A stretch of DNA of 64,000 nucleotides from Candidatus Latescibacterota bacterium (lineage in GTDB: Bacteria; Latescibacterota; UBA2968; UBA8231). The notes under the pieces are model-generated. The model was not told the DNA's origin, did not search any database, and saw only the letters and a program-made list of their open reading frames with translations. Location: assembly GCA_965200315.1 (NCBI GenBank), contig OZ241362.1:640001-704000 (forward strand), given 5' to 3'. Shown here one piece after another: positions 6,849 to 33,823 of this stretch (positions within the stretch are counted from its first letter, which is position 1; the number at the start of each line of letters is the position of its first letter). The position numbers were made by a program, and so were the translations under genes.

Positions 6849-6891
6849 TCATTTGTTCAGTATATAGCCCCCGGCATAGGAGAGAAAGGAC

Positions 6892-7395
6892 ATGGGATAC
6901 TCAGCCAAGGCGATAGCGAATTATTTTTTTTCAAAGGGCCAAAAAGAAAAAAAGCCGATTACGCCTTTGAAGATGCAAAAACTCGTCTATGTTGCCCATG
7001 GATGGCATCTTGGAATAGAGAGCCAACCGCTTATTGATGATGAGTATGTTGAGGCTTGGGATTTTGGTCCTGTTTTTCCTTCTCTCTACCACGAGTTCAA
7101 GCACTTCAAGAATAATCCGGTTGCGGAACCCGCTGAAGAGTTGATAATCGACGAGCATCCATTGGATTTGAAAATTTACACCCCTAAAGTTCAGGAGGAA
7201 GATAAGGAGCTAATGAAGTTCCTCGATCAAATATGGGAAGTTTATAGTAAGTACTCTGGCTCACGACTATCCACTATGAGTCACGGAAAAGGAACGCCTT
7301 GGAGTAATACGCGCCAGAAGGTCGGGAAGATTAGAAATGCCCCCATTGATAATAAAGAGATAGAAGAATTCTATAAAAAAAAACTTAAAAGATAG
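6892..7395 (+). CDS. Panacea-domain (DUF4065/SocA-like) antitoxin
   Basis: AIANYF, TPLKMQKLVY, EAWDFGPV.PSLY, LSTMSH..GTPW; AT-rich. Confidence 0.92.
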   Translation: MGYSAKAIANYFFSKGQKEKKPITPLKMQKLVYVAHGWHLGIESQPLIDDEYVEAWDFGPVFPSLYHEFKHFKNNPVAEPAEELIIDEHPLDLKIYTPKVQEEDKELMKFLDQIWEVYSKYSGSRLSTMSHGKGTPWSNTRQKVGKIRNAPIDNKEIEEFYKKKLKR

Positions 7396-7440
7396 TCAAA
7401 CAGCCTTCGCATTAAGCATTTTTCATAGGGTGAGATGTCA

Positions 7441-7457
7441 TTCAGACAGCCTCTAAG
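7441..7457. mobile_element. Isolated IS5-family terminal repeat (scar)
   Basis: TTCAGACAGCCTC-TAA resembles the ends of the MITE at 34860-34985. Confidence 0.45.
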
Positions 7458-7459
7458 AA

Positions 7460-7859
7460 ATGAATGTACCTACTGATTTAGAGAAACTTCTTGACTCCGA
7501 AGAAAAGGAAGAAGGAGACGATACGGTTGACGATCTTCTTTATGAGAGAATTTTATACCCTACTAATAAGAGAGATCGAGCGGATATACTACTAGGGGGC
7601 TTATCTGATTATATAAAAATGAGACGCCGGTACGGGTACTGGATTGTCTTTCTCAACTTCACTATGGATTATTGCTGTTTTGGCTGTTGTTTTTCTTCAA
7701 GGATTCTCAGTAAAAGGATTTGTTCTTACTGACTCTGTACTTATGCTGCTGCTCGGCACAACAACGGCAAATATAATTGGACTCTTTATTATTGTTGCCA
7801 ACTACCTGTTTCCCAAAAATGCGCGAGACTTGCTTGATTCTTCCGAAAGTGGCGACTGA
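7460..7859 (+). pseudogene. Two-TM membrane protein, candidate Panacea-paired toxin, frameshifted
   Basis: ORFs 7460-7732 and 7644-7859 join near 7648-7652 into an acidic N-terminus, MRRRYGYWI, TM1, then LTDSVLMLLLGTTTANIIGLFIIVANYLFP. Confidence 0.7.
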
Positions 7860-7989
7860 TAATCCTACCTAATCCTATCCGTACCACGGCCCGTCACTCC
7901 TACGCATCACTCTGATGAAGCGTCCTTGCGTCTTTGCGTTAAAGCCCTCCCCAATAACGGTGTACCTAGCCAAGGCCCCTGCTTCTGCG

Positions 7990-8350
7990 CTAGTGCCGCG
8001 TCGTCAGTAGCGGTTCACATGTTCGCCAACTGCTCAACCGCATTTGCAGCGTCGGGAAGCCCTAGCAGGTCGGCCATTAGGCGTCGATCTATCTCGCGGC
8101 GAACCGGGTCGGTAGTTAGGTTGGCGAAACCGGCTAGGGGTTTGTCGGCCAAATCAGCGAAAACTTGCTTGCCGACCCCTAGCTGGTCGTCCGTTAGATG
8201 GGTTGGGTCTAGAATCCGCAAGGTGCATGCCAGTTCGTGCGGCAGACTGCTGCGGCCAAGATAGGGCCGATTCGCGTGAACGATTCGCAGCAACAAACCA
8301 AGGGTGCTGTTGAGCCATAAGCACAGCACCTCTTTGCCGCCGACCGGCCC
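7990..8350 (-). pseudogene. C-terminal remnant of a fused (type IIG-like) restriction-modification protein
   Basis: LCLWLNSTLGLLL...LRILD...L.DDQL...DPVRREIDRRL..LLGLP is typical of N6-MTase/REase fusion C-termini; no N-terminus. Confidence 0.55.
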
Positions 8351-8353
8351 TGC

Positions 8354-8742
8354 GCCCAGTGCCACGCCTCAACCTTGGCGCCGCTCAAAAACGGCGCGTT
8401 TCTCGCCGCGTGGTTTGCTGGCACCCGCGAGGGCCACGCGGATGTCGGGGTCTGGGGAGCCGAGCGCCGACACGGGCGTTGGTAGGCCCCGCGCTGCTTG
8501 GCCAAGGTGCGGGACTGCGCCCACTGGAATCCAGTGCTTCACGCCAGCGGCGACGGCGGCGTCTATCTGTTCTTCAAGGTGGGCGAGCGGATCGCCGCTT
8601 GGACTTAGAAACCGCCGGCGGCGAGTACTCCTATCCGGCGATTATCCCTACCCAAGTCGGCATGGCCATAACCTATACTTGGCAGCGCGAGCGGATCGCG
8701 TTCTGGCACGGGTCGGTAGAACAAGTGCCTAATACCGGCTAG
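8354..8742 (+). pseudogene. Sialidase/BNR-repeat protein remnant with internal deletion
   Basis: QCHASTL...AAWFAGTREGHADV...(TAG)...HWNPVL...LFFKVG joined directly to GEYSYPAII...TYTWQRERI. Confidence 0.85.
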
Positions 8743-9803
8743 CCCGCCGGCTGCATGTCCTCCCCGCGCAGCAGGAAGGCGCGGATGTCGTAGCGGCCCG
8801 GGCGCTCTACCGGCAGCTCCCCGGCCTCGATCATCACCTCCAGCGGCGAAGCCATCGTCCGCAAGGGCAGTGCGGTCACCTCGTGCCGCCGCGCCGACTC
8901 GTATGTGGCCATGATGATCTCCACTGCCGCCCGGCCGTTTTCCGCTTGGCCGCGATGCTCGACCTTGCCTTCGATCCACTCCACGATCTCGCGCTGCTGC
9001 CCAACGCTGGGGTCCTCACCTGCGCCCGGCCGCTCTTCCCAAGTGCCGGTCTGGCTGTTGAGCAGCCGCACCTTGCTCTCGTCGAGTTCCATTATGCCCT
9101 CCGAGCCGTAGAAAACCCCGCCCTGGTAGTTCGGACCGGCCAGCTCCTGCAAAAGCTGGCCGATGGCCCCGTTGTCGAACTGCACGATACACAGGCTGCG
9201 ATCCTCAATGGGGATGTCGCGCTCAAAGCGCTCGGTCTTGCGCTCGATATTGCCCATCACCCACACGGCCTGCGGATCGCCCATCACGTAGCGCATCATG
9301 TCCAACAGGTGCGAGCAATCGTTGAGCAAACCCTGTCCGCCGCGCGCGTTGACCTGCCGCACCTCGCCGATGGCCCCTGCTGCCACCAGTTCCTTGGCCA
9401 AAGTCCACGCCGGATTGAAGCGACGCTGATGGGCAATGGCCAGCTTGACGCGGTTGCGCTGGGCCGCGATGAGCATGTCGTCGCAATCGCCCAGACTAGT
9501 CGCCATAGGCTTTTCGCACAGCACGGCTTTGGGCTTGCGCGCACAAGCGGCAATCGTCATCGGCGCGTGCAACTTGTGCCAAGTGCAAATCGAGACGATG
9601 TCGAGCGCCTCCGCGTCGAGCATCTGGCGGAAATCCTCGTAGCGTTGAGCGATCCCATGCCGCTGGCCGAACTCCTCGCGGACCTCAGCTACCGGGTCGG
9701 CCAGCGCCACCACCTCGACTTGGTCCACCTCGTTCCAGCCTTGTATATGGTAGCCGGCGATGCTGCCACAGCCGATAATGCCCACTCGATACTTTTCTGC
9801 CAT
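8739..9803 (-). CDS. Gfo/Idh/MocA family oxidoreductase
   Basis: GIIGCGSIA, VLCEKPMA, HQRRF. Confidence 0.92.
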   Translation of the reverse strand: MAEKYRVGIIGCGSIAGYHIQGWNEVDQVEVVALADPVAEVREEFGQRHGIAQRYEDFRQMLDAEALDIVSICTWHKLHAPMTIAACARKPKAVLCEKPMATSLGDCDDMLIAAQRNRVKLAIAHQRRFNPAWTLAKELVAAGAIGEVRQVNARGGQGLLNDCSHLLDMMRYVMGDPQAVWVMGNIERKTERFERDIPIEDRSLCIVQFDNGAIGQLLQELAGPNYQGGVFYGSEGIMELDESKVRLLNSQTGTWEERPGAGEDPSVGQQREIVEWIEGKVEHRGQAENGRAAVEIIMATYESARRHEVTALPLRTMASPLEVMIEAGELPVERPGRYDIRAFLLRGEDMQPAG

Positions 9804-9824
9804 GTCGTCTTCCTTTGTTGATGG

Positions 9825-11729
9825 TTAGTTAATCCACTCGACAATCGCGTCCTCGCTCAGCCCCTCGGCCTCAACCACAAGCTGCGTTCCCTTACCCGCA
9901 CGATAGCATCGCCTAGCGACGCGCTGCGGAAAATGATCCCCGGCCCCATACACCAACAGCCGCCCCGGCGCACACAACGCCAGTGCCATCCGCACATCGC
10001 CCAACGCGCGAATCCCCGGCGCAAAAAGCACCCCGGTCCACGCTTCGTCACCGCCCAAATCGCGGCCACCCCAGTCCACCGCGGTGCTGCCGACGCCACT
10101 AGTCAGCGCCCGGGCAAACAGACACCAGATGCCGGCCTCGCCTTGGCCGACGAGGTGGCGCTGGCCCACGCGCAGGTGCTGGGCCAGATAGGCCAAGCCC
10201 GTGAGGATGTCCTGCACCCGGCAAGCCATCGTCGCCTGATTATAAGTGTGGTACAGGGGATCCGCCTCGTCGTGCCCTTCCCGCTCCGTCCCATCGGTCA
10301 GGAAAGGAGCGACAACCAGCACGGCCCCACCCGCCTGTAACAAGCCCTGCGCCAGCGCACCAGGATCGTCGCCTCCCCAAGGCGCATCGGCAATCAGGGT
10401 CGCCGCCAGCGTGCCTTGGGGACCACGCGGCAGGAAAAACGCCGCACGAACCCGTTCCCCGCAGCCCACGCGCCCCAAGACCAACTCCTCGGCCACATAG
10501 CCCTCCTCCCTCCGAAAGCCCAAGCTCTCGACCGCTACTTGGGGCGCGGCCTCCACCCCGAGCAGACTCGCCAGCGCCGGGCGCGTCTCGCGCTGGAAGC
10601 GCCGGATGGGGGCGGCCAACCGCACGGCCAACCGCTTCTCGCTGCGGGCACTCACCGCCGCGAAAACCCCCTGCGAGTCGAGCGCACGGGCCGGTTTTTT
10701 GCGCCCGCTGAACACCAGCAAATCCTCGTCCTGCTCCACGGCAAATGGCACCTCGGCGACTCGCCCTCGCCCGCCGAGCAAATGGCGTTTGAAAAACGCG
10801 TACACCGCTTCGCGGCTCGGCTGGTTGTAGTTGTGAGGGGCGTCTATCTGCACCTCGCGCACCTTGTTTTGCGCCCCGTAGAGGCCGTAGATCGCCCGCA
10901 CCGCCGGGAACTCAACCTCCGGCGTGTTCGCCGTCCAGTCGCCGCTACACGACACCAGCAACAAGGGCCGCGGCGCCATGCAGCTTGCGATTTCCACATT
11001 GTTGATGTCCAGCCGCAAGTGGCCCTGATTTTCGCAGCGACAGCCGCCCTGCATAAAGGCCGAGACCATGTTGACGGGAGCCGCCGCCTTGATCCGCTCG
11101 TCAACGGCCATCAGCAAAAAGGTCTGCGTCCCCCCACCGGACGCGCCTGTGCAGCCTATGCGCTCGGCATCCACATCCGCCAGCGAGGCGAGGAAATCAA
11201 CCACTCGTATGCTGTTCCACAGTTGCAAGCTCAGTGCGCCGATCCCCCACAGCACCTCGCGCCGCCCCCCAATCTCCCGATGCACGAATTGGTCGCTGTC
11301 GTTGTACCCAACCATGTCGTACGAAAAGGCCACCATGCCCTGCCGCGCAAAGCTGATGCAGCGGCCAGCAATTGACCCCAGCTCGGTGTTTTCGAGCCGC
11401 CCCCGCTGCCAGTGGCCGTGCGGACAGGCAATCCCCGGAAAAGGCCCCTCCCCCAGCGGCCGGTACAGATTGCCGCAGACGAAGAAGCCGGGCAGGCTCT
11501 CGAAAAAGACCTTTTCCACCGCATAGCCCTCCCGCTCAATCCGCCCAAAAATCTGCGCCTTGAGCGGCGTTTTCGCCGGCAGCGGCCACAAGCCCGCGCA
11601 GACGAGGATGTGCCGACGAATCGCCGCCTTGCGCTCTTCCCACTCGGCCAGCGTCCGATAGCGGCGCAAGGCCCACGGCGTACTAACGCCTTTGGCCGCG
11701 CCCAGCCGCTCATCACTTGTAACGGTCAT
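9825..11729 (-). CDS. Acetylxylan-esterase-like alpha/beta hydrolase with second degenerate hydrolase domain
   Basis: PHGH, YDMVG, GASGGGTQT nucleophile elbow, APRPLL, PHNY. Confidence 0.82.
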   Translation of the reverse strand: MTVTSDERLGAAKGVSTPWALRRYRTLAEWEERKAAIRRHILVCAGLWPLPAKTPLKAQIFGRIEREGYAVEKVFFESLPGFFVCGNLYRPLGEGPFPGIACPHGHWQRGRLENTELGSIAGRCISFARQGMVAFSYDMVGYNDSDQFVHREIGGRREVLWGIGALSLQLWNSIRVVDFLASLADVDAERIGCTGASGGGTQTFLLMAVDERIKAAAPVNMVSAFMQGGCRCENQGHLRLDINNVEIASCMAPRPLLLVSCSGDWTANTPEVEFPAVRAIYGLYGAQNKVREVQIDAPHNYNQPSREAVYAFFKRHLLGGRGRVAEVPFAVEQDEDLLVFSGRKKPARALDSQGVFAAVSARSEKRLAVRLAAPIRRFQRETRPALASLLGVEAAPQVAVESLGFRREEGYVAEELVLGRVGCGERVRAAFFLPRGPQGTLAATLIADAPWGGDDPGALAQGLLQAGGAVLVVAPFLTDGTEREGHDEADPLYHTYNQATMACRVQDILTGLAYLAQHLRVGQRHLVGQGEAGIWCLFARALTSGVGSTAVDWGGRDLGGDEAWTGVLFAPGIRALGDVRMALALCAPGRLLVYGAGDHFPQRVARRCYRAGKGTQLVVEAEGLSEDAIVEWIN

Positions 11730-25235: not shown

Positions 25236-25773
25236 TGCGCGAATGGGTCGAAAACTCGCGCGCGACCTCCTCAAAGGGAGTACCGGCTCGCAGGGCCGCC
25301 AGCGCCTCCTCGGCCCGCTCCTGAGTGGGTACGACGATGTGGGCGATTTTGATCCAGCGCGCCCAGTTTTGCTCGGCAAACACGCGCCGCATTTCCTCCT
25401 CGGTAATGGCAACCTGCTCCTCGACAGCGCGCTGCTCGATCTCTCGTATCAGCCGCCGCCGCAGAGCGGTCGCCACCTCGCTGACAAACGCCGGACTCCG
25501 GTCTAATTTGCCGGCGCGCGCTTCGCGGAGAATGAGCGTCCGATCGACAAGCGACTGCAAGTATTCGCGGACCTTGGCGCTGCCTTCCTGTTCGCTTTTG
25601 GCCCACTCGGCCACATTGTCGATCAGGTAGCGTAGCTCCCGATCCGTGATTACCTCTGTGCCTACTTCGGCCAGTGGCAATGCTTCCTTTTGGGTGGTCG
25701 GCTCCTGCTGTCCACAGGCGACGAGCGCCGCAATGCCCAGTGCGATCCACATCGACAACTTTAGCAAGTACAT
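25236..25773 (-). pseudogene. 5' part of a parvulin-type peptidyl-prolyl isomerase lipoprotein
   Basis: Lipobox LVAC; IAHIVV...AL..G.PFEEVAREFS, then loses homology before the expected GGDLG. Confidence 0.8.
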
Positions 25774-25784
25774 ATTCTCTCCTG

Positions 25785-26813
25785 TTAGCGCGGCCAGAGC
25801 AGCGCCCGCTCCGCGTCAATGCGCGGATACACGGTCTCTCCCGGGGCAAAACGCCGTTCCTTAGACGCGATGATGTGGATGGACGCCCCGGCCCAATCCA
25901 CCCATAAAATCCACGCGGCCCCAGCGTCCTCAACGACGCGCACCACGCCCGGCACCTGCCCCCCGGCGGGCGCAATGTCCTCCGGCCGCACCCCGAGCAG
26001 CATCTCGCCTGACCCACTCAGCGCCGGCATTCGCTCGGCTTGGTTCGGACCAATCCACGCACCCCCGCGCCGCTGCACGCTGAGGATGTTGATCGCAGGT
26101 TGACCCAATTGGCGCGCCACTGTGGGCGAGACCGGCTGGCGGTAAATGACCTCCGGGCTACCCTGCTGCAAAATCCGCCCCTCGGCCAGCACGGCGATGG
26201 AGTCGCTCATGGACAGGGCCTCGGCTTGATCGTGGGTCACGTAGATCGCCGGAATGCCCAGCTCCTGCCGCAACAGGGCCAGCTCCAAGCGGAGGGACTC
26301 GCGCAGCTTGGCGTCCAAATTAGTCAGTGGCTCGTCAAAAAGAAACAGCCGCGGCCGCCGCACAATCGCCTGCCCAATGGCCACCCGCTGCATCTCGCCG
26401 CCCGACAGCCTAGCTGCCGGGCGGTCGAGCAGCCGCTCAATTTTCAGCATTTCGGCCGCCCAGCCCACGCGCTGGTCCATCTCGCTGCGCGCCATCTGCC
26501 AACGCGGTGCCTTGAGCGGAAATTCCAAGTTGCGCCGCACGCTCCAGTCGGGATAGAGAGCGAAGTGTTGGAATACAAACGCAATGTCGCGGTCGGCCGG
26601 CGGCCAGTGCGTCACCTCCTCGCCGTCCATTTCGACTAGGCCGGCGTCGGGTGCGTCCAATCCGGCGACGATCCGCAGCAGCGTGGTCTTGCCCGCGCCA
26701 GTCGGCCCCAGCACCACCAGCATCTCGTCGGCCCCCAGCGACAGGTCAATGCCAGACAGAACCTCGGCCTTGCCAAAGCGCCGCGTCACCCCTTTTAGCT
26801 GCAACCAAGACAT
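25785..26813 (-). CDS. Sugar ABC transporter ATP-binding protein
   Basis: GPTGAGKTT, LSGGEMQR, DEP. Confidence 0.93.
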   Translation of the reverse strand: MSWLQLKGVTRRFGKAEVLSGIDLSLGADEMLVVLGPTGAGKTTLLRIVAGLDAPDAGLVEMDGEEVTHWPPADRDIAFVFQHFALYPDWSVRRNLEFPLKAPRWQMARSEMDQRVGWAAEMLKIERLLDRPAARLSGGEMQRVAIGQAIVRRPRLFLFDEPLTNLDAKLRESLRLELALLRQELGIPAIYVTHDQAEALSMSDSIAVLAEGRILQQGSPEVIYRQPVSPTVARQLGQPAINILSVQRRGGAWIGPNQAERMPALSGSGEMLLGVRPEDIAPAGGQVPGVVRVVEDAGAAWILWVDWAGASIHIIASKERRFAPGETVYPRIDAERALLWPR

Positions 26814-26814
26814 T

Positions 26815-27855
26815 TCAGAGCCGCTTGCCGCTCGTCGGGTCGAACAACAGCACCCGGGCAAAGTCCAAGCTCAAAACCGCGCCTACGGCCACTCGCTCCC
26901 GATCGGCCACTCGCATGACCAACCGCCCGCACTCGGCCTGTAGGTGAATGTAGCGGCATACACCTTGGTATTCGTCGCGCACCACCTCGGCCCGCAGTCG
27001 CCCTTTGGCGGTCGGTCGCACAAACTCCGGGCGCACCCCCAGCGTCGCCGGCCCCGGCCGCACCCGCTCAGATAGCGGCCAAACCAGCCCAAGCGCGGCA
27101 AAGCAGTCCTCGCGGATTTCCCCGGTGATGAAATTCATGCTGGGGCTGCCGATAAAATGCGCCACGAACAGGTCGGCCGGCTGGTCGTACACCAAGGCCG
27201 CAGCCCCGCTCTGGCGAATCCGGCCCTCGTCCATGACCACCACTTGATCGGCCAAGCTCATGGCCTCCTCTTGATCGTGGGTCACATACAAGGTGGCGAT
27301 CCCGGCGTCGAGCTGTTGGGCGCGGATCATCTCCCGCATCTCCAGCCGCAAACCCGCGTCGAGCGTGCCCAACGGCTCGTCCATCAGGTATATCTGCGGC
27401 CGCCGCACCATGGCCCGCGCCAAGGCCACCCGCTGCTGATCGCCGCCCGATAGCTGCCGCGGATAGCGCCCGACCAACCCGCCCAGCCCCAACCGCTCGA
27501 CCATGTCGGCCACCCGCTGCCGCCGCTCCCGCCGATTCAACCCCATGCTCTCCAGCGGAAAGCCGATGTTGTCCTCGACCTTCAGGTGCGGATAGAGCGC
27601 GTAAAACTGAAACGCAAACCCCACGTCCCGCTCGGCCGGCGAGCGGGACGTGATGTCTGCGCCGGCCAGCGCGATCTGCCCGGCCGTAGGCTTTTCGAGG
27701 CCGGCGACCATCCGCAGCGTAGTCGTCTTGCCGCACCCCGAAGGCCCCAACAGCACGGCGAACTCGCCCGCGCCGCAGCGCAAGTCAATGCCCTGCACAG
27801 CACACGTGCCGTCCGCATAGGTCTTGACCAACCCCCGGCACTCGAGAAAGCTCAT
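26815..27855 (-). CDS. Sugar ABC transporter ATP-binding protein
   Basis: GPSGCGKTT, LSGGDQQR, MDEP. Confidence 0.93.
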   Translation of the reverse strand: MSFLECRGLVKTYADGTCAVQGIDLRCGAGEFAVLLGPSGCGKTTTLRMVAGLEKPTAGQIALAGADITSRSPAERDVGFAFQFYALYPHLKVEDNIGFPLESMGLNRRERRQRVADMVERLGLGGLVGRYPRQLSGGDQQRVALARAMVRRPQIYLMDEPLGTLDAGLRLEMREMIRAQQLDAGIATLYVTHDQEEAMSLADQVVVMDEGRIRQSGAAALVYDQPADLFVAHFIGSPSMNFITGEIREDCFAALGLVWPLSERVRPGPATLGVRPEFVRPTAKGRLRAEVVRDEYQGVCRYIHLQAECGRLVMRVADRERVAVGAVLSLDFARVLLFDPTSGKRL

Positions 27856-28031
27856 GACTCGTCCATCTGCCGCCGCGACGTCGCAACGTGCAACAGCGTA
27901 CTGAAGGCCGCGACAAAAAACCCATACTTCAGCCCCATCCCCCAAAACGGTTGCAGCATCAACCCCACGCCGGCGACCATACCCACGCGAGCGCCGCGAT
28001 CCAACCAGCCAATCACCGCTTGATCGTCCAT
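27852..28031 (-). CDS. Small two-TM membrane protein of the ABC operon
   Basis: MDDQAVIGWLDRGARVGMVAGVGLMLQPFW...; ATGA overlap with the ATPase. Confidence 0.65.
   Translation of the reverse strand: MDDQAVIGWLDRGARVGMVAGVGLMLQPFWGMGLKYGFFVAAFSTLLHVATSRRQMDES
28013..28029 (-). repeat. Direct repeat bounding TA cassette (GGACGATCAAGCGGTGA on minus strand)
   Basis: 16/17 identical to 29109-29125. Confidence 0.85.
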
Positions 28032-28065
28032 TCTCCGCCTCTTGGCATCGCTCAGGTTGATTTGT

Positions 28066-28461
28066 TCATCGTCTCTCGCCGGAGCAGAGCCAGTCCTCGT
28101 AGAATCTCTTGACTCGCTTTGGCGTACGCGGAGACGATAAGAGGCCATCTTGGACTCTTCGCAGCACGTCAGGGGTACAGGGTTGGCGAAGCTCGGCTAT
28201 ACGCCAACTCACTGCTTCGTTCAAATAGTGAATTTCAGGGATAAGAGCATGGTCGTAGGAGATCACGGATGCGTACCGCACCCATGGGCGATCGCCCGGG
28301 CTCAGTACTACGGTACTATCTTTGTAGAATCGCTTGGTGGATACCGCCCCAATGATAGTCTGCGGCGGCTCACCCACTGGGTCTGTCACCAAGATCCAGA
28401 GATGTGGAGTCTCAAAGTTTGGACTCGGGAGCACCAGAGTCTCGCCAGCGCGACTAAACAT
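28066..28461 (-). CDS. Putative toxin, PemK/MazF-like fold, paired with Panacea
   Basis: GETLVL...HLWILVTD...AVST...DSTVVLSPGD.PWV...SVISY; overlaps the antitoxin stop. Confidence 0.65.
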   Translation of the reverse strand: MFSRAGETLVLPSPNFETPHLWILVTDPVGEPPQTIIGAVSTKRFYKDSTVVLSPGDRPWVRYASVISYDHALIPEIHYLNEAVSWRIAELRQPCTPDVLRRVQDGLLSSPRTPKRVKRFYEDWLCSGERR

Positions 28462-29020
28462 CGCTGTTGGGAATCACCATCTGCTCTGCTAAGGAGAACG
28501 ATTCCAGCTCTTCGGTAATCTCCCTGATTTCAGCCTCCGTCTTACCGACAGCTTCGAGGATATCGCGATAGTGAATCGCGCACGAAGACCCTTCAGGGTT
28601 CTGCCACTCGCTGAAATTGTCGTGGCAGTAGTCTCGCAGTTGCCATTGATCCCAACGGCCATACGCTGAGTAGATCTCGTCAATCAGACCGGTCTCCGCT
28701 TCGGAGAGATCGTCGTCCTGCGGATTCGCAATCAAGGAGACTTCATACGCGCTCGGAGGGCTGATGAACCTGCTCCAGGACCCTAGGCAATTGGGTTCAT
28801 CTCCCTCGTTGATCCGATCGAGGGTAAAGCTGAGCACCGGACCATGGGGCATCGATACGTACCTGTCGTAAGTAATAGGATGGCCCCAGCGGCTGAGAGC
28901 GGTTCGGTCCATGGCGTAGAGCAACTTGATAAGTTTCATATAGTTCATCGCTCCACCTGCATGCTGCAGTAAGCGAGCGGCGGCCTGAACCGTCTTGTCT
29001 TCGCGGTAACGGGGTATCAC
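28454..29020 (-). CDS. Panacea-domain (DUF4065) antitoxin
   Basis: MNYMKLIKLLY..DR, ITYDRYVSMPHGPVLS, LRDYCH...EWQNP.GSS. Confidence 0.9.
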   Translation of the reverse strand: MIPRYREDKTVQAAARLLQHAGGAMNYMKLIKLLYAMDRTALSRWGHPITYDRYVSMPHGPVLSFTLDRINEGDEPNCLGSWSRFISPPSAYEVSLIANPQDDDLSEAETGLIDEIYSAYGRWDQWQLRDYCHDNFSEWQNPEGSSCAIHYRDILEAVGKTEAEIREITEELESFSLAEQMVIPNSDV

Positions 29021-29108
29021 TGTGAGACCTCTGCGGGAAAAAATGGATATGGGCGTAACGGTACTGGGCTGGTTAAACGCTGTCAACGCCAACGGCACCT
29101 TGTGCTGG

Positions 29109-29125
29109 TCATCGCTTGATCGTCC
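29109..29125 (-). repeat. Direct repeat equal to permease 3' end (GGACGATCAAGCGATGA on minus strand)
   Basis: Last 17 nt of the permease including its stop; duplicated at 28013-28029. Confidence 0.85.
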
Positions 29126-29972
29126 CAAAGGTGACGCCGCGCAGCAGATGCTTGCGCACCAACACCGTGAACGCGATGATCGGCGCGGCAAAAATCAGCA
29201 TCCCCGCGCTGATCTGCGCCCACGGCAAACCCGACACATTGCCCTGCAAACCAGCGAAGTAAACCGGCACTGTAACGGCCTTTTGGTTGTTGAGCGTCAT
29301 GGCAAACCCGTACTCGTTCCACGCGGAGATCAGGCAAAACACCGCAGTTACTGCCATCCCGGGCACGGCCCGCGGCAGAACGACCAAGCGAAAGGCTTGG
29401 AAGCGAGTATAGCCAGCCACCAGCGCGGCCTCTTCGTACGCGGTGGGTATTTCGTCGATAAAGCCCTTCATCAGCCACACGGCCAGCGACATATTGAACG
29501 CCGTGTACAGCAGCACCAATCCTAAATGGCTGTTCTGGAGATCGAATTCGCGGTACATCATCAACACCGGCACCACCAAGGCGAGGGGCGGCAAAAAGCG
29601 CGTCGAGAGGATAAAAAACAGCCAGTCGCGCCCCCCGGGGATGGCAAAGCGGCTAAAGCCATAGGCCGCGCCGGTGCCGATCAGCACCGAGCACAAGGTG
29701 CTGAGCAGGCCAATGACCAAGCTGTTGCCCAAGTAGTGGAAAAAGGCGTGCTCCCCGCCGGCGTACACCGCGGCCAATTGGCGATAGCCGTCGAGATTGG
29801 CGCGGAAGTAGCTCCCGTCGGCCGCGACCTCCTCGGCCCAAGTGGGCGCGAACTTGGGATGCACGGCAATGCTGTCGTCCCGCGTCTTAAACGAGGTCAG
29901 CAAGAGCCATACAAGCGGCAGCATGGCCGCGCAAAAGTAGCCCCCGACAAAGGCGATGCGCAGCGCCTTCAC
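29109..29972 (-). CDS. Carbohydrate ABC transporter permease
   Basis: IPTAYEEAALVAG; ends LRGVTFGTIKR. Confidence 0.92.
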   Translation of the reverse strand: MKALRIAFVGGYFCAAMLPLVWLLLTSFKTRDDSIAVHPKFAPTWAEEVAADGSYFRANLDGYRQLAAVYAGGEHAFFHYLGNSLVIGLLSTLCSVLIGTGAAYGFSRFAIPGGRDWLFFILSTRFLPPLALVVPVLMMYREFDLQNSHLGLVLLYTAFNMSLAVWLMKGFIDEIPTAYEEAALVAGYTRFQAFRLVVLPRAVPGMAVTAVFCLISAWNEYGFAMTLNNQKAVTVPVYFAGLQGNVSGLPWAQISAGMLIFAAPIIAFTVLVRKHLLRGVTFGTIKR

Positions 29973-30865
29973 TGCGCCCCGGCCTCCTCGCGCCGCTGCA
30001 CTGAACTTATGTAGCGCACAAACACACTGGCCAGCGCGAGCACCAGCACCAACACTACGTACGAATACGCCGCACCCAACCCTATCTTGCCGTCGCGGAA
30101 CACCACCTGATAGAGCAGCGCACTCACCGTTTGCGTGGCCGGGTCGTTGGGGCCGGTGATGGCCATGACCAAATCGAACTGCTTGAGCGCGTCCGTGGCC
30201 CTCAGCAATACGGCCAGCCCCAAAAGCGGCGCACACAAAGGCAGGGTAATCCGGCGGAAGACCTTCCACCGCGAGGCCCGGTCAATGGCCGCGGCCTCGT
30301 ACAAGTAACCGGGGATGGCGTTGAGTGCGGCCAGTGCGATCAGCATCATAAACGGCGTCCACATCCACACGTCGACCAGCAGAATCGACAGCAGCTTGAG
30401 GTCGGGGTCTGTAATCCACTGGGGTTGGCCCAGCCCCAGTGCGCCGAGGCATTGGTTGAGGATGCCGTAGTGCCCGTTGAGTATCAGCTTCCAAAAGAGC
30501 GCGATCACGGCCGGCGGCAACATCATCGGCACCAACAGTGCCGTCAGTGCAAACGCCCGGCCGCTGAAGCGATCTTTGAGCGCCAGTGCCAAGGCAAAGC
30601 CCAAGACTAACTCCACGGCCACGGCCACGCAGACAAAGAGCGCGGTGGTCCGCAGCGCGGCCCCGTATTTGGCAAACTTAAACGCCACGGCGTAGTTGAA
30701 TCCCCCCACGAACTTCCACGCCCCGCCGACCAAGTCCACATTGGTGAAGCTGAGCGCGATGCTGTACAGCAGTGGGAAGACATTGATGCCGATGAGCAAA
30801 AGGAGGGCCGGCGCCACGAACGCATACTGAGTCCAATCGCGGCACCGGCCCATACTACCCCTCAC
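29969..30865 (-). CDS. Carbohydrate ABC transporter permease
   Basis: DVWMWTPF, LYEAAAIDRAS. Confidence 0.92.
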   Translation of the reverse strand: MRGSMGRCRDWTQYAFVAPALLLLIGINVFPLLYSIALSFTNVDLVGGAWKFVGGFNYAVAFKFAKYGAALRTTALFVCVAVAVELVLGFALALALKDRFSGRAFALTALLVPMMLPPAVIALFWKLILNGHYGILNQCLGALGLGQPQWITDPDLKLLSILLVDVWMWTPFMMLIALAALNAIPGYLYEAAAIDRASRWKVFRRITLPLCAPLLGLAVLLRATDALKQFDLVMAITGPNDPATQTVSALLYQVVFRDGKIGLGAAYSYVVLVLVLALASVFVRYISSVQRREEAGAQ

Positions 30866-30873
30866 GCTGCCTC

Positions 30874-32178
30874 CTATTCCATCTCTAGCAAGCCCGCTTC
30901 CATCAGAATCATCTCGTGCTCAGCGGCCAGCGCGTCGAGGGCGTCGGCGCTCGCGCTCGTGCCGTCGAGGGCTGCGCCCAAGTGGCGCACGGCTGCGGCT
31001 AACAGCTCGTTGTACACTGGCACGTTCCAAAAGTCCTGCAAGTAATCCAGCGACTCAGCGAACACGGCGTTGTACGGCGCGGCTGCGGCAAATTCCGCAC
31101 TCGCTAGCAGCTCGGTATTGGCCGTAAACGAGCCGGGATAGGATATCCACTTCTCCTGTATGGCGGTCTGGGAAAACCACGCGATAAACTGCTTGGCCCA
31201 TTCCTGCTTTTGCGGCGCGGTCTTGGTCGAAATGCTAAAGCCCTGCCCGCCCAGCGAGATAACGCGCGTGTCGCCGTGGCGCGGCACCATGAAGAAGCCG
31301 ACTTGGTCGCCCATGCTGGCGACGATGCCCGGATAGAACGGAAAGTAGTCCAAGACCATGGCCGTAGAGCCGTTGGAGAAAGCCTCTAAGTTGAAAAAGT
31401 AATCGGCATTGGTGCCGCCTTCGGGCACAAATTGCAACAGGGACTTGAAAAACTCCAGCCCGGCCACGGCCCCCTCCGTGTTGAGGTGGCCCTGCACCTT
31501 GTAGCTCTGCGGGTCGCCCCACGCACCGCCCCAAGCCCACAAAAAGGGCTGAAAGCCCATGACGATCGAGTCGTACCCTCGGCCCGTCAGCAGCGAGCAG
31601 CCATAGCGCTTTTGCTCCGGCCGGTGGAAAAACTCGGCCAAGTCGCGGAATTCCTCCCACGTGTCGGGCGCGGCGAGCGGGCGGCCGTAGCGGGCGGCAA
31701 ACGCCTCTTGCTCGGCCGGGTCTGTAAACCAGTCCTTGCGATAGACAAAGCCAATGGCATCCGTCTGGCAGGGCGCGGCAAAAAACCGGCTGCTGCCCGG
31801 CGGGTATTCGCACAAATAGCGCGCAGCGCGCGGATGAATCGCGCCCATGTCAACGGCCTCGGGCAGCCAATCGGTCAGTTCCAAATACAGCCCCTTGGTC
31901 GCGCCGCGGCCGATCCACTGACTGTCGCCCACGACGATGTCGAAATCGGTCTGCTTGTTGCCGAAGTTGAGAAAAACCTGGTCTTGATAAGCCGGCCAAG
32001 GAATCTGGTACACCTCGACGGCAATCCCAGTCTCTTGGGCAAACTCGTGGCCCAGCTCTTGTAGCGCCGCAGCCGGATCCCATTGCGCCCACCAGATGGT
32101 GATCTTTTTGTCTTCGGCGCGGCCCGTTTGTACCGCCAGCAACAAAACCGCGGCTAGCCCGAACATCCGCATTCTCAT
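30874..32178 (-). CDS. Sugar ABC transporter substrate-binding protein
   Basis: Signal peptide; YRKDWF, PDTWEE, LGGQG; RBS GAGGAGG. Confidence 0.9.
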   Translation of the reverse strand: MRMRMFGLAAVLLLAVQTGRAEDKKITIWWAQWDPAAALQELGHEFAQETGIAVEVYQIPWPAYQDQVFLNFGNKQTDFDIVVGDSQWIGRGATKGLYLELTDWLPEAVDMGAIHPRAARYLCEYPPGSSRFFAAPCQTDAIGFVYRKDWFTDPAEQEAFAARYGRPLAAPDTWEEFRDLAEFFHRPEQKRYGCSLLTGRGYDSIVMGFQPFLWAWGGAWGDPQSYKVQGHLNTEGAVAGLEFFKSLLQFVPEGGTNADYFFNLEAFSNGSTAMVLDYFPFYPGIVASMGDQVGFFMVPRHGDTRVISLGGQGFSISTKTAPQKQEWAKQFIAWFSQTAIQEKWISYPGSFTANTELLASAEFAAAAPYNAVFAESLDYLQDFWNVPVYNELLAAAVRHLGAALDGTSASADALDALAAEHEMILMEAGLLEME

Positions 32179-32345
32179 GCGCTTTCCTCCTCTTAGAAGC
32201 GTTTTTTTCGCGTCGGCACAAGCGCACGTACCGCAAGGTCGCCGATGTATGCGCCCGCTCAATATCCGACTGATTGAACCGCCGCGCAATGGCCGCCTTA
32301 GTGCCCTGATACCGAGTCGGTTTTATGCAGTAGAATGGTTTCGTT

Positions 32346-32360
32346 TAACGCTATGCGTTA
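32346..32360. promoter_or_regulatory. Probable HigA operator
   Basis: TAACGC-tat-GCGTTA perfect palindrome 16 bp upstream of higB. Confidence 0.65.
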
Positions 32361-32376
32361 TATATTTTGGTGTAAC

Positions 32377-32658
32377 ATGAGACGGTCTTTTAGAGGTAGA
32401 GAAACCGAACGGATATTCCAACGCACTCGATCCCGAAAGCTACCCAGCGATATCCAACAAATCGCCATTCGCAAGCTCCGCATGCTCAATCGGTCAACTA
32501 CACTAGCTCATCTTCGGGTGCCACCGGCCAATCGCCTCGAAAAACTCCGGGGCGATCGGGCGGGCCAGTACAGTATTCAAATCAATGACCAGTGGCGCAT
32601 CTGTTTTACGTGGCGAAATGGCGATGCTTGCGACGTTGGGATCGTAGATTATCACTAG
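32377..32658 (+). CDS. higB: RelE/ParE-family toxin HigB
   Basis: LRVPPANRLEKLRGDRAGQYSI.INDQWRICF.W...IVDYH. Confidence 0.93.
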   Translation: MRRSFRGRETERIFQRTRSRKLPSDIQQIAIRKLRMLNRSTTLAHLRVPPANRLEKLRGDRAGQYSIQINDQWRICFTWRNGDACDVGIVDYH

Positions 32659-32668
32659 GAAAAGGCTT

Positions 32669-32974
32669 ATGAGTGCTCAGAAATTAGCTCCTGTTCATTT
32701 AGGGGAAGTCTTGTTGGAAGAGTTCCTCAAGCCGATGCAGCTCAGCCAAAACCGCCTCGCACTTGCCATCGGCGTGCCGCCCCGACGCATCAACGAAATC
32801 GTCTTGGGAAAACGCGGCATTACGGCTGATACCGCGCTGCGGCTGGCGCGTTACTTCAGTATGTCGCCCCAATTCTGGATGGGCCGGCAGATGGATTATG
32901 CGCTAGATATAGCCGAAGACGAACTAGCGGACCGCTTGGAGCGAGAAGTGCAACCGCGTCTGGAGACGGGATAA
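32669..32974 (+). CDS. higA: HigA/VapI family antitoxin
   Basis: PVHLGEVLLEEFL, RINEIV.GKR.ITADTALRL, FWM..Q. Confidence 0.93.
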   Translation: MSAQKLAPVHLGEVLLEEFLKPMQLSQNRLALAIGVPPRRINEIVLGKRGITADTALRLARYFSMSPQFWMGRQMDYALDIAEDELADRLEREVQPRLETG

Positions 32975-32995
32975 AAGGCATTGCGAGGCATGGGC

Positions 32996-33823
32996 CTACT
33001 CCGCCCCGGCAAAACTCCACACCTGCAGAGCCGTGCGATGGAAGAGCCACGCCTTGTCGTCGTCGGTGAGAAAATCGACGTGGTCGCGGAACATCTCCAA
33101 AGCCGGTCCGTACCCCACCCCTTTCAGGACGCCGGGGAAATTGGTTCCCCACATCAACCGCTGTGGCCCAAAAGCGTCGTAGATGCGGCGGAAGGTGGGA
33201 AACGTATCCGCGTGCGGAAAGGGCAACGCGGACTTGTGAGCCTGCGGCGTGCATTTCACGTACACCTTGGGAAAACAAGCTAGGTCGAGTACGTGGCTCA
33301 GCAGCGGAAAGGGCGGTTCCTCATTGGTTGGCGCTCCGCCGATGTGGTCCAGCACCACCGGCACCTCGGGAAAGCGACCGATGATCGGCGCCAAGTGGGG
33401 CAGATTGGCCGCCGGGCCGTGGACGATAAAACAAGTGCCTAGTTCCTCCGACCGCCGCCACAGCCGATCCTGATCTGGGGCGGCCCATTCCGCGGGGTGG
33501 TCGAGCCGCGACGAGTGAATGCGCAAACCGCCAAAACCGCCCTCGCGCAACTTTTCCAGCCGGTCGGGCGCGTCCGGGGCCTTGGGATCGACCAAGCCAA
33601 TCGCGGCAAAGCGGCCCGGAAAGCGGCGTAGGCAGTCGGCCACGTACCGGTTGTCGAACAAATAGTGAATCGGCTGCACAATGACCGCTTTATCGACCCC
33701 GACCTCGGCCATGGTCTGATTGAGCAATTCCACGGAGCCACCGCCCACCTGAGTCCGACCCTCGGCAAAGGGATAGCGCTCCGCGTCGTCGCTCCACACG
33801 TGCAGATGCGTGTCAATGATCAT
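32996..33823 (-). CDS. Amidohydrolase_2 family protein (sugar-lactonase-like)
   Basis: DTHLH, VLDHIG, FGPQRLMWGTNFP. Confidence 0.88.
   Translation of the reverse strand: MIIDTHLHVWSDDAERYPFAEGRTQVGGGSVELLNQTMAEVGVDKAVIVQPIHYLFDNRYVADCLRRFPGRFAAIGLVDPKAPDAPDRLEKLREGGFGGLRIHSSRLDHPAEWAAPDQDRLWRRSEELGTCFIVHGPAANLPHLAPIIGRFPEVPVVLDHIGGAPTNEEPPFPLLSHVLDLACFPKVYVKCTPQAHKSALPFPHADTFPTFRRIYDAFGPQRLMWGTNFPGVLKGVGYGPALEMFRDHVDFLTDDDKAWLFHRTALQVWSFAGAE

Follow-up and report, generated by a model that had tools for sequence, protein, structure and literature searches.

In a 64,000-nt stretch of a Candidatus Latescibacterota genome (contig OZ241362.1, positions 640,001 to 704,000, here called the window), an operon for a CUT1-type ATP-binding cassette (ABC) transporter is interrupted by 1,079 bp of inserted DNA. 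This insert carries a Panacea-domain antitoxin gene, panA, and a gene for a putative toxin, and it lies between the genes for permease 2 and a small membrane protein, bracketed by a 17-nt direct repeat. We consider it probable that a horizontally acquired panA-toxin module was inserted at an ATGA overlap between these two genes with duplication of the target, and that the cassette was later exchanged by recombination. Coordinates are those of the window unless a relative is named, and the features of the operon and insert lie on the minus strand.

The left copy of the repeat, GGACGATCAAGCGATGA (29109..29125), comprises the last five codons and the TGA stop of permease 2. The right copy, GGACGATCAAGCGGTGA (28013..28029), has a sole mismatch that changes the ancestral ATG start of the small gene to GTG (28016-28014). 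Both copies, which a preliminary description of this DNA had placed at 29125-29109 and 28029-28013, were recovered in a repeat search of the window; they are 16/17 identical, with a start-to-start spacing of 1096. As the bases outside the copies differ (upstream G vs T, downstream CC vs TT), the repeat is exactly 17 nt long. Allowing up to three mismatches, the 17-mer has only these two sites in 64 kb, against a chance expectation of 0.11. The DNA between the copies (28030..29108) consists of a leader, panA, the toxin gene and a 3' tail.

The limits of the insert are set independently by relatives in which the site is empty. A scan for permease 2 in species-representative genomes gave 80 loci, mostly from Latescibacterota metagenome-assembled genomes (MAGs), with 20 of them at 91-98% protein identity. 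Thirty junctions were displayed: 26 are cassette-free, three carry the cassette and one (L025) was left out. All 26 cassette-free loci lack the 1,079 bp and have one repeat copy followed directly by the small gene, whose ATG or TTG start forms an NTGA overlap with the permease stop; they read ...AAGCGATGA(G/T)CCGCTGG... or a variant. The exact 17-mer, searched for in 86 loci, is present once in each of the 16 relatives that hold it and twice in none, and in these it is the native permease/small-gene junction. By tblastn, matches to both PanA and the toxin were found in only 3 of the 80 loci, designated L003, L006 and L007, which represent sister species. The cassette is absent and the operon intact in 17 of the 20 closest loci, and the outgroups L019-L030, apart from the omitted L025, are all empty at the junction. 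In a more distant locus from the Planctomycetota (L068), about 3.8 kb (6865-10658), including a long open reading frame (ORF) on the opposite strand, separates permease and small gene; it was considered as a relative of the cassette and rejected, its genes being unrelated.

These aligned orthologues bear out the earlier proposal of an insertion between copies of a duplicated target, with a classic ATGA overlap at the empty site. A separate copy of the MDDQAV start of the window's small protein was looked for in the cassette-free orthologues and found in none, so the insertion reading stands. The small protein had been expected to begin MIGW at the restored overlap; the overlap start proved correct, but the orthologues begin MSRW or MIRW. 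There is next to no chance that the repeat is a coincidence, or an ancestral feature of the operon unrelated to insertion. Only its short length speaks for this, whereas two matches arose in 0 of 100 shuffled sequences, the repeat coincides with the limits defined by the 26 empty sites, and no relative has two copies.

The composition of the insert also sets it apart from its surroundings. Its guanine plus cytosine (GC) content is 0.549, compared with 0.613 in the genes for the permeases and 0.666 in that for ATPase 1, and across all four cassette alleles the range is 0.52-0.55 against ~0.61 in the adjacent permease genes. The two toxin–antitoxin (TA) genes are its sole genes, with no mobility or recombinase gene in it or beside it, and terminal inverted repeats are absent, the best inverted pair (16 nt, 81% complementarity) being non-terminal. 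The target duplications of usual transposons are shorter than 17 nt. A transposon or insertion sequence was therefore rejected, given the lack of a transposase and of terminal inverted repeats and the 17-nt duplication. It has also to be asked whether the 17-mer might be the core of an attachment site, which would make the cassette a very small integrative element, mobilised by an integrase or transposase acting in trans, as integrons and mobilisable elements are. A direct repeat of 17 nt is within the range of attachment cores, and the insert is compositionally foreign, but in addition to the missing recombinase gene and terminal inverted repeats, the other alleles are without the repeat, the 17-mer is nowhere else in the window, close clusters of the toxin number merely 8, and the cassette occupies one site in 4/4 carriers. 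We regard such an element as very unlikely.

Comparison of the four cassette alleles reveals that their edges differ. Only the window allele has the right repeat copy, which is missing from L003, L006 and L007. In L003 and L007, permease 2 ends in TAA and is separated from the conserved cassette leader by 27 nt of filler, and the toxin gene is missing 45 nt near its end, with its stop overlapping the native ATG of the small gene; the right junction of L006 is the same. The 45-nt deletion shared by these three alleles fuses the toxin end to ...AKR, and a DWL(S/C/A)xG-type C-terminus is retained by the window and by 5/7 close toxin clusters. Since the AKR-type end looks derived and the window end matches 5/7 clusters, we read the window junction as closer to the original. 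The right copy would then have been lost in the other alleles by a 15-nt slippage deletion between two ATGs. The converse is that the right repeat is secondary: the original insertion resembled L003, L006 and L007, and the window afterwards acquired 15 nt (GACGATCAAGCGGTG) immediately behind the ATG, either by slippage or by gene conversion from the permease end. Three of four alleles are indeed without the right copy, and with the ATGs aligned the window and L003 differ by exactly one in-frame 15-nt block. However, 13 permease-derived bases stand in exact native register before the old start, as a target duplication predicts, a loss of 15 nt between two ATGs is a simple slippage deletion, and the shared 45-nt deletion and AKR end mark the junction of the other three as derived. 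A secondary origin of the right copy therefore appears unlikely.

The same junction holds a second insert in L006, a gene for a PvdO/FGE-sulfatase-like lipoprotein (L006 positions 6861-7700, 279 aa, GC 0.549) that is in no other locus and not in the window. This gene begins with the first 14 nt (first five codons) of the small gene, and an exact 15-nt repeat brackets it. Just upstream of its cassette, L006 also has a 25-nt copy of nt 41-66 of the small gene at 22/25 identity, a match that 0 of 2000 shuffles equalled. It is the only allele to keep such further pieces of the left copy, nt 1-14 being exact. For the left spacers in the window and in L003 and L007, the possibility that they are decayed copies of the 5' end of the small gene was likewise tested and rejected, as 1566, 1099 and 1228 of 2000 shuffles, respectively, scored as high and the matches are not significant. 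Given the fragments in L006, the original target duplication may have been ~80 bp. A broader proposal can be built on this, namely that the 17-nt repeat is the stump of an ~80-bp duplication that began 13 nt ahead of the permease stop and extended to around nt 66 of the small gene, that small TA modules enter operons by the integrase-free "insertion with long target duplication" known from restriction-modification genes, and that the junction was used twice, by the PanA-toxin cassette and by the lipoprotein gene of L006. As a combined explanation this is tentative and unlikely; if true, it would mean that translationally coupled overlaps are preferred as landing sites, either by some mechanism or by a selective filter.

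The first gene of the cassette, panA (28454..29020), encodes a 188-aa Panacea-domain antitoxin from a GTG start with AGAGG 7 nt upstream; at this position L003 and L007 likewise have GTG, and L006 has ATG. The protein matches PF13274 (SocA_Panacea) at E 2.9e-21, with 76.9 bits against a gathering cut-off of 25.7 and coverage of profile positions 1-113/113, and has 437 homologues at E<=1e-5 from several phyla, mostly at 50-58% identity. It is not a SocA equivalog, scoring 12.8 bits against the cut-off of 190 for NF047745 (NCBIfam).

The second gene (28066..28461) encodes a 131-aa protein of PanT type, and its ATG overlaps the panA stop (ATGTTTAG). This putative toxin has no match in Pfam (E<=0.01), NCBIfam or PADLOC. 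Word-based searching brought up just 8 clusters, each with 80% identity or more, while a full HMMER scan recovered 1,658 clusters (50% identity) at E<=1e-3, of which 362 reach E<=1e-10. A fold computed from the 8 near-identical sequences had a mean predicted local distance difference test score (pLDDT) of 48.9 and was discarded; with 140 sequences in the alignment, the AlphaFold (AF2) model reached a pLDDT of 93.1 and a predicted template modelling score (pTM) of 0.87. The Foldseek matches of this model listed from the PDB are all MazF, Kid, MoxT or YdcE (TMq 0.47-0.57, TMt 0.52-0.64, probability 0.99-1.00), and the model has extra C-terminal helices, 97-109 and 115-126, relative to MazF/PemK/Kid. 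The toxin is predicted to have the MazF/PemK fold, and membership of the PemK/MazF family is not demonstrated. The earlier label of a "Panacea/PemK-like" pair thus holds in full for the antitoxin, and for the partner it holds for the fold but not, given the lack of a Pfam match, for the family. The unnamed toxin family is a large MazF-fold partner family of Panacea antitoxins without a Pfam model, and may equal one of the numbered clusters of PMC8832971 or PMC10440598.

Two histidines, H20 and H58, are invariant in 135/135 distant members of the toxin family. The catalytic residues of MazF are an arginine (Arg-29) and a threonine or serine. In an hhalign alignment with E. coli MazF that is itself non-significant, H20-L21 of the toxin family pairs with a His-Arg of MazF, placing a near-invariant leucine at the Arg-29 position, and a TT pair of the family falls on the TT of MazF. 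The activity of the toxin would presumably be RNase-like.

Several observations connect the two proteins as a pair. In all four Latescibacterota alleles the toxin gene follows a Panacea gene, and tblastn found 6 distant toxin homologues, at 27-32% identity, in plasmids and phages; the five inspected, from an Endozoicomonas plasmid, a Phaeobacter plasmid, a Helicobacter prophage, a Klebsiella phage and a Vibrio phage, all directly follow a Panacea gene. A model of the PanA-toxin complex scored 0.88, compared with 0.01 for the best of three controls, and this mark is reached by 116/157 solved complexes and by 2/215 mismatched pairs. Contact agreement between runs was at least 95%, and the pLDDT of the partners was at least 86. 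This modelling supports binding of PanA to the toxin. The predicted interface involves PanA residues 102-109 together with C-terminal residues 164-184, in agreement with the neutralisation of toxin by the C-terminal helices of PanA that is described in part of the report of Ernits et al. 2023 (PMC10440598). PanA would presumably neutralise the toxin directly.

The toxin looks partly disabled in the window. Codon 58 (28288..28290) is CGC, for arginine, where L003, L006 and L007 have CAC or CAT for histidine, and H58 is kept in all 7 close relatives; two further changes at conserved positions, V38G and H63Y, are also found in the window toxin. From these residues, it may be that its activity has been lost through R58. 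In L007, codon 60 of the toxin gene (about 7714-7716 of that locus) has changed from TGG to TAG, a premature stop that is either real decay or an assembly error; its panA is protein-identical to that of L003, and an intact protein nearly identical to the L007 toxin exists elsewhere (P0005). The toxin gene also contains an 18-nt direct repeat (28094-28111 and 28319-28336, 225 nt apart), which is present in L006 and L007 as well and encodes KRFY(K/E)D twice, at residues 43-48 and 118-123.

TA modules on plasmids and phages stabilise replicons, and the preliminary description suggested that here the operon may be addicted to the cassette. On this view, toxin-mediated post-segregational killing would prevent loss of the cassette and so stabilise the transporter genes. 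Both cassette genes are under purifying selection overall, and the Panacea-toxin pairing is conserved on plasmids and phages. Precise loss, however, leaves the operon intact, so that only the cassette itself would be protected. The 17 empty loci among the closest 20 retain their operons, the sister genomes L006 and L010 differ in the presence of the cassette, the window toxin has R58, V38G and H63Y, and that of L007 has a stop at codon 60. Addiction of the operon is quite unlikely. The underlying observation is thus confirmed and the core interpretation as an insertion is supported, whereas the addiction idea is not.

Insertion at this junction would have had consequences for the expression of the genes that follow. 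In relatives, permease 2 and the small gene overlap by four nucleotides, ATGA (29109-29112), and a second ATGA (27852-27855) joins the stop of the small gene to the ATG of ATPase 1, so that the cassette broke one link in a chain of translationally coupled genes. Read from the ATG at 28031, the small gene (27852..28031) would encode a protein of 59 aa (MDDQAV...); read from the GTG at 28016, the ancestral start position, it would encode 54 aa. Its orthologues, of 54-55 aa, begin at the ATGA overlap. Because the ATG in the window is 15 nt ahead of the old start, which is now GTG, the predicted protein has five additional residues (MDDQA). On sequence grounds the small gene in the window probably uses this new ATG. 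It is preceded at a distance of 6 nt by AAGAGG (28038..28043), a likely ribosome-binding site, and GCCAAGAGG is kept 6-8 nt before the small-gene ATG in 4/4 cassette alleles. The suggestion that the insert supplies a replacement GGAG-ATG was therefore right in that a ribosome-binding site and an ATG are provided, but GGAG is just 1 nt from the ATG and AAGAGG is the better candidate. Upstream, the cassette leader contains a TTGACA hexamer (29081..29086), a candidate -35 element that is invariant, together with ~30 nt downstream, in all four alleles. A terminator scan of 27700-29300 found none on the minus strand and one site on the plus strand, and transcription is therefore likely to pass through the cassette and on to the genes for the small protein and the ATPases.

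The cassette alleles have diverged to much the same extent as the genes around them. Synonymous divergence (dS) between cassettes is 0.29-0.39, compared with 0.19-0.34 for flanking genes, and the ratio of nonsynonymous to synonymous change (omega) is 0.19-0.21 for panA and 0.16-0.28 for the toxin gene, compared with 0.04-0.12 for the large flank genes. From this similarity in dS and the low omega it follows that the cassette is old and maintained by selection, presumably after a single old insertion. The carriers, a group defined by presence of the cassette before trees were built, require at least three changes on a flank tree of 24 rows, and a single clade of carriers is rejected (p-AU 4.1e-5, approximately unbiased test). 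Along the first seven 300-nt segments, which reach from the binding-protein gene to the middle of permease 1, L006 and the cassette-free L010 are 97-99% identical in six (the 900-1200 segment is at 95.0%), but identity is only ~95% beyond this, starting in the 3' part of permease 1 and continuing across the junction. Between L003 and L007, dS is 0.016 for panA, 0.064 for permease 2 and 0.22-0.24 for the binding-protein and ATPase 1 genes. Taken together, these identity tracts and dS values indicate that filled and empty alleles are exchanged through homologous recombination within the genes of the operon.

The sequence of events that we favour would begin with a two-gene type II TA module, acquired horizontally, entering the chromosome of the ancestor of a Latescibacterota clade at the 4-base ATGA overlap of permease 2 and the small gene. 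The insertion event would have duplicated target DNA, of which the window retains 17 nt, with the left copy preserving the C-terminus and stop of the permease and the right copy the start region of the small gene. With no terminator intervening, transcription could run from the insert leader, with its TTGACA, through to the downstream genes for the small protein and the ATPases, and the AAGAGG site of the insert would replace the lost translational coupling, at the cost in the window of five additional N-terminal residues on the small protein. Cassette and empty alleles would afterwards have been swapped among sister species via homologous recombination in flanking operon genes, and precise loss mediated by the repeat may have contributed too.

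A number of results weigh against this account. No insertion mechanism is demonstrated, a duplication of 17 nt being too long for usual transposons and too short for the class with more than 30 bp known from restriction-modification genes. Around the cassettes of L003 and L007 there is no direct repeat of at least 13 nt, so the duplication could be secondary, and an old single insertion and an early spread by recombination cannot be told apart by dS. A scan for the sigma-70 consensus found no full promoter site at the cassette. For the toxin, the Foldseek E-values are 6e-3 or worse, which is consistent with the proposed fold without being strong; hhalign of the family against E. coli MazF gave a non-significant probability of 0.8 and E of 0.07; the Pfam PemK model (PF02452) matches 2/140 toxin relatives (best E 0.0019) and not the window protein; and the family profile has no match among PDB sequences at E<=1. 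Identification of the toxin is thus by modelled fold only, and the score of the complex may partly reflect likeness to solved TA complexes.

The operon into which the cassette was inserted comprises genes for a binding protein (30874-32178), permease 1 (29969-30865), permease 2 (29109..29972), the small membrane protein, and two UgpC/MalK-like ATPases, ATPase 1 (26815..27855, downstream of the insert) and ATPase 2 (25785-26819). Permease 2 is MalG/UgpE-like (PF00528, E 1.6e-13), with a GlcU/MalG-like NCBIfam match under the equivalog cut-offs, and its GTG start is that of the L006 ORF. ATPase 1 matches PF00005 (E 1.7e-33) and NF008653 (E 5.4e-100). No Pfam family matches the small protein, even with the threshold relaxed to E<=10, and a resemblance to the small membrane proteins of glycerol-type ABC operons was not confirmed. 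No Rfam family was found in 25500-33200 at E<=0.1. Among the relatives, L001 and L002 do not have the ATPase 2 gene at high identity downstream of the ATPase 1 gene (~75% over <100 nt), in loci that are long enough to contain it, and similarly low matches in L005 and L011 may merely reflect contig ends. L004 and L005 are two contigs of one MAG with an identical operon region, which may be duplicated in reality or only in the assembly. On the plus strand immediately upstream of the operon, at 32335-32974, the window has a second TA pair in DNA of GC 0.50-0.53, consisting of a 107-aa ORF that weakly resembles HigB/YoeB (E 0.021) and a HigA antitoxin (TIGR02607, E 1.7e-28). Among the relatives, both genes are found only in L009 and L015, with higA fragments in L007 and L014, and the pair is another presence/absence polymorphism at the border of the operon.

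The alleles of this locus appear to capture stages in the life of one chromosomal TA cassette: entry with a target duplication that saved both neighbours, repair of the broken coupling by a built-in ribosome site, prolonged maintenance by purifying selection, interspecies recombination that swaps filled and empty alleles, and decay of the toxin (R58 in the window, the stop in L007) while the antitoxin stays intact. Current views of TA biology are not overturned by this event, which is well documented and fairly ordinary.

No TA cassette inserted with target duplication was found among the papers listed by a literature search, although a case may still be in print. The nearest parallel is the insertion of restriction-modification complexes with long target duplication. 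In the part of Furuta, Abe and Kobayashi 2010 (PMC2853133) that gives criteria and tabulated cases, these involve a whole addiction module, an insert of <20 kb, no mobility gene and a duplication of >30 bp, with tabulated lengths of 46 to 423 bp; an earlier Helicobacter study is cited there as reference 37. As in the cases described there, the window has a small addiction-type module of foreign GC, both genes lying in a 1,079-bp insert that is well under 20 kb and has no mobility gene, and a unique target that is duplicated directly, overlaps the 3' end of a gene and is detected against an empty site in a relative. It differs from them in keeping 17 bp, under the >30-bp criterion, and in having a TA pair rather than a restriction-modification system as cargo. 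With SocAB of Caulobacter the cassette has the Panacea domain in common, but PanA is not a SocA equivalog (NF047745) and the toxin is unrelated in its fold assignment. The toxin shares the fold of MazF/PemK/Kid (PF02452), as judged by the Foldseek matches of its model, and differs in having no significant sequence match, in its extra C-terminal helices, and in its partner, which is Panacea rather than of MazE/PemI type. The closest resemblance is to the PanA-PanT type II TA systems, which, in the portion of Kurata et al. 2022 (PMC8832971) that deals with them, include MazF/PemK-like PanT toxins that inhibit translation. The two invariant histidines, H20 and H58, distinguish the window toxin family from these. 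In both, the Panacea gene comes first and the toxin gene directly after it with overlapping codons, the toxin has a predicted MazF/PemK-type fold without a database domain match, direct contact through the C-terminal helices of PanA is predicted, and the module is found on phages, plasmids and chromosomes.

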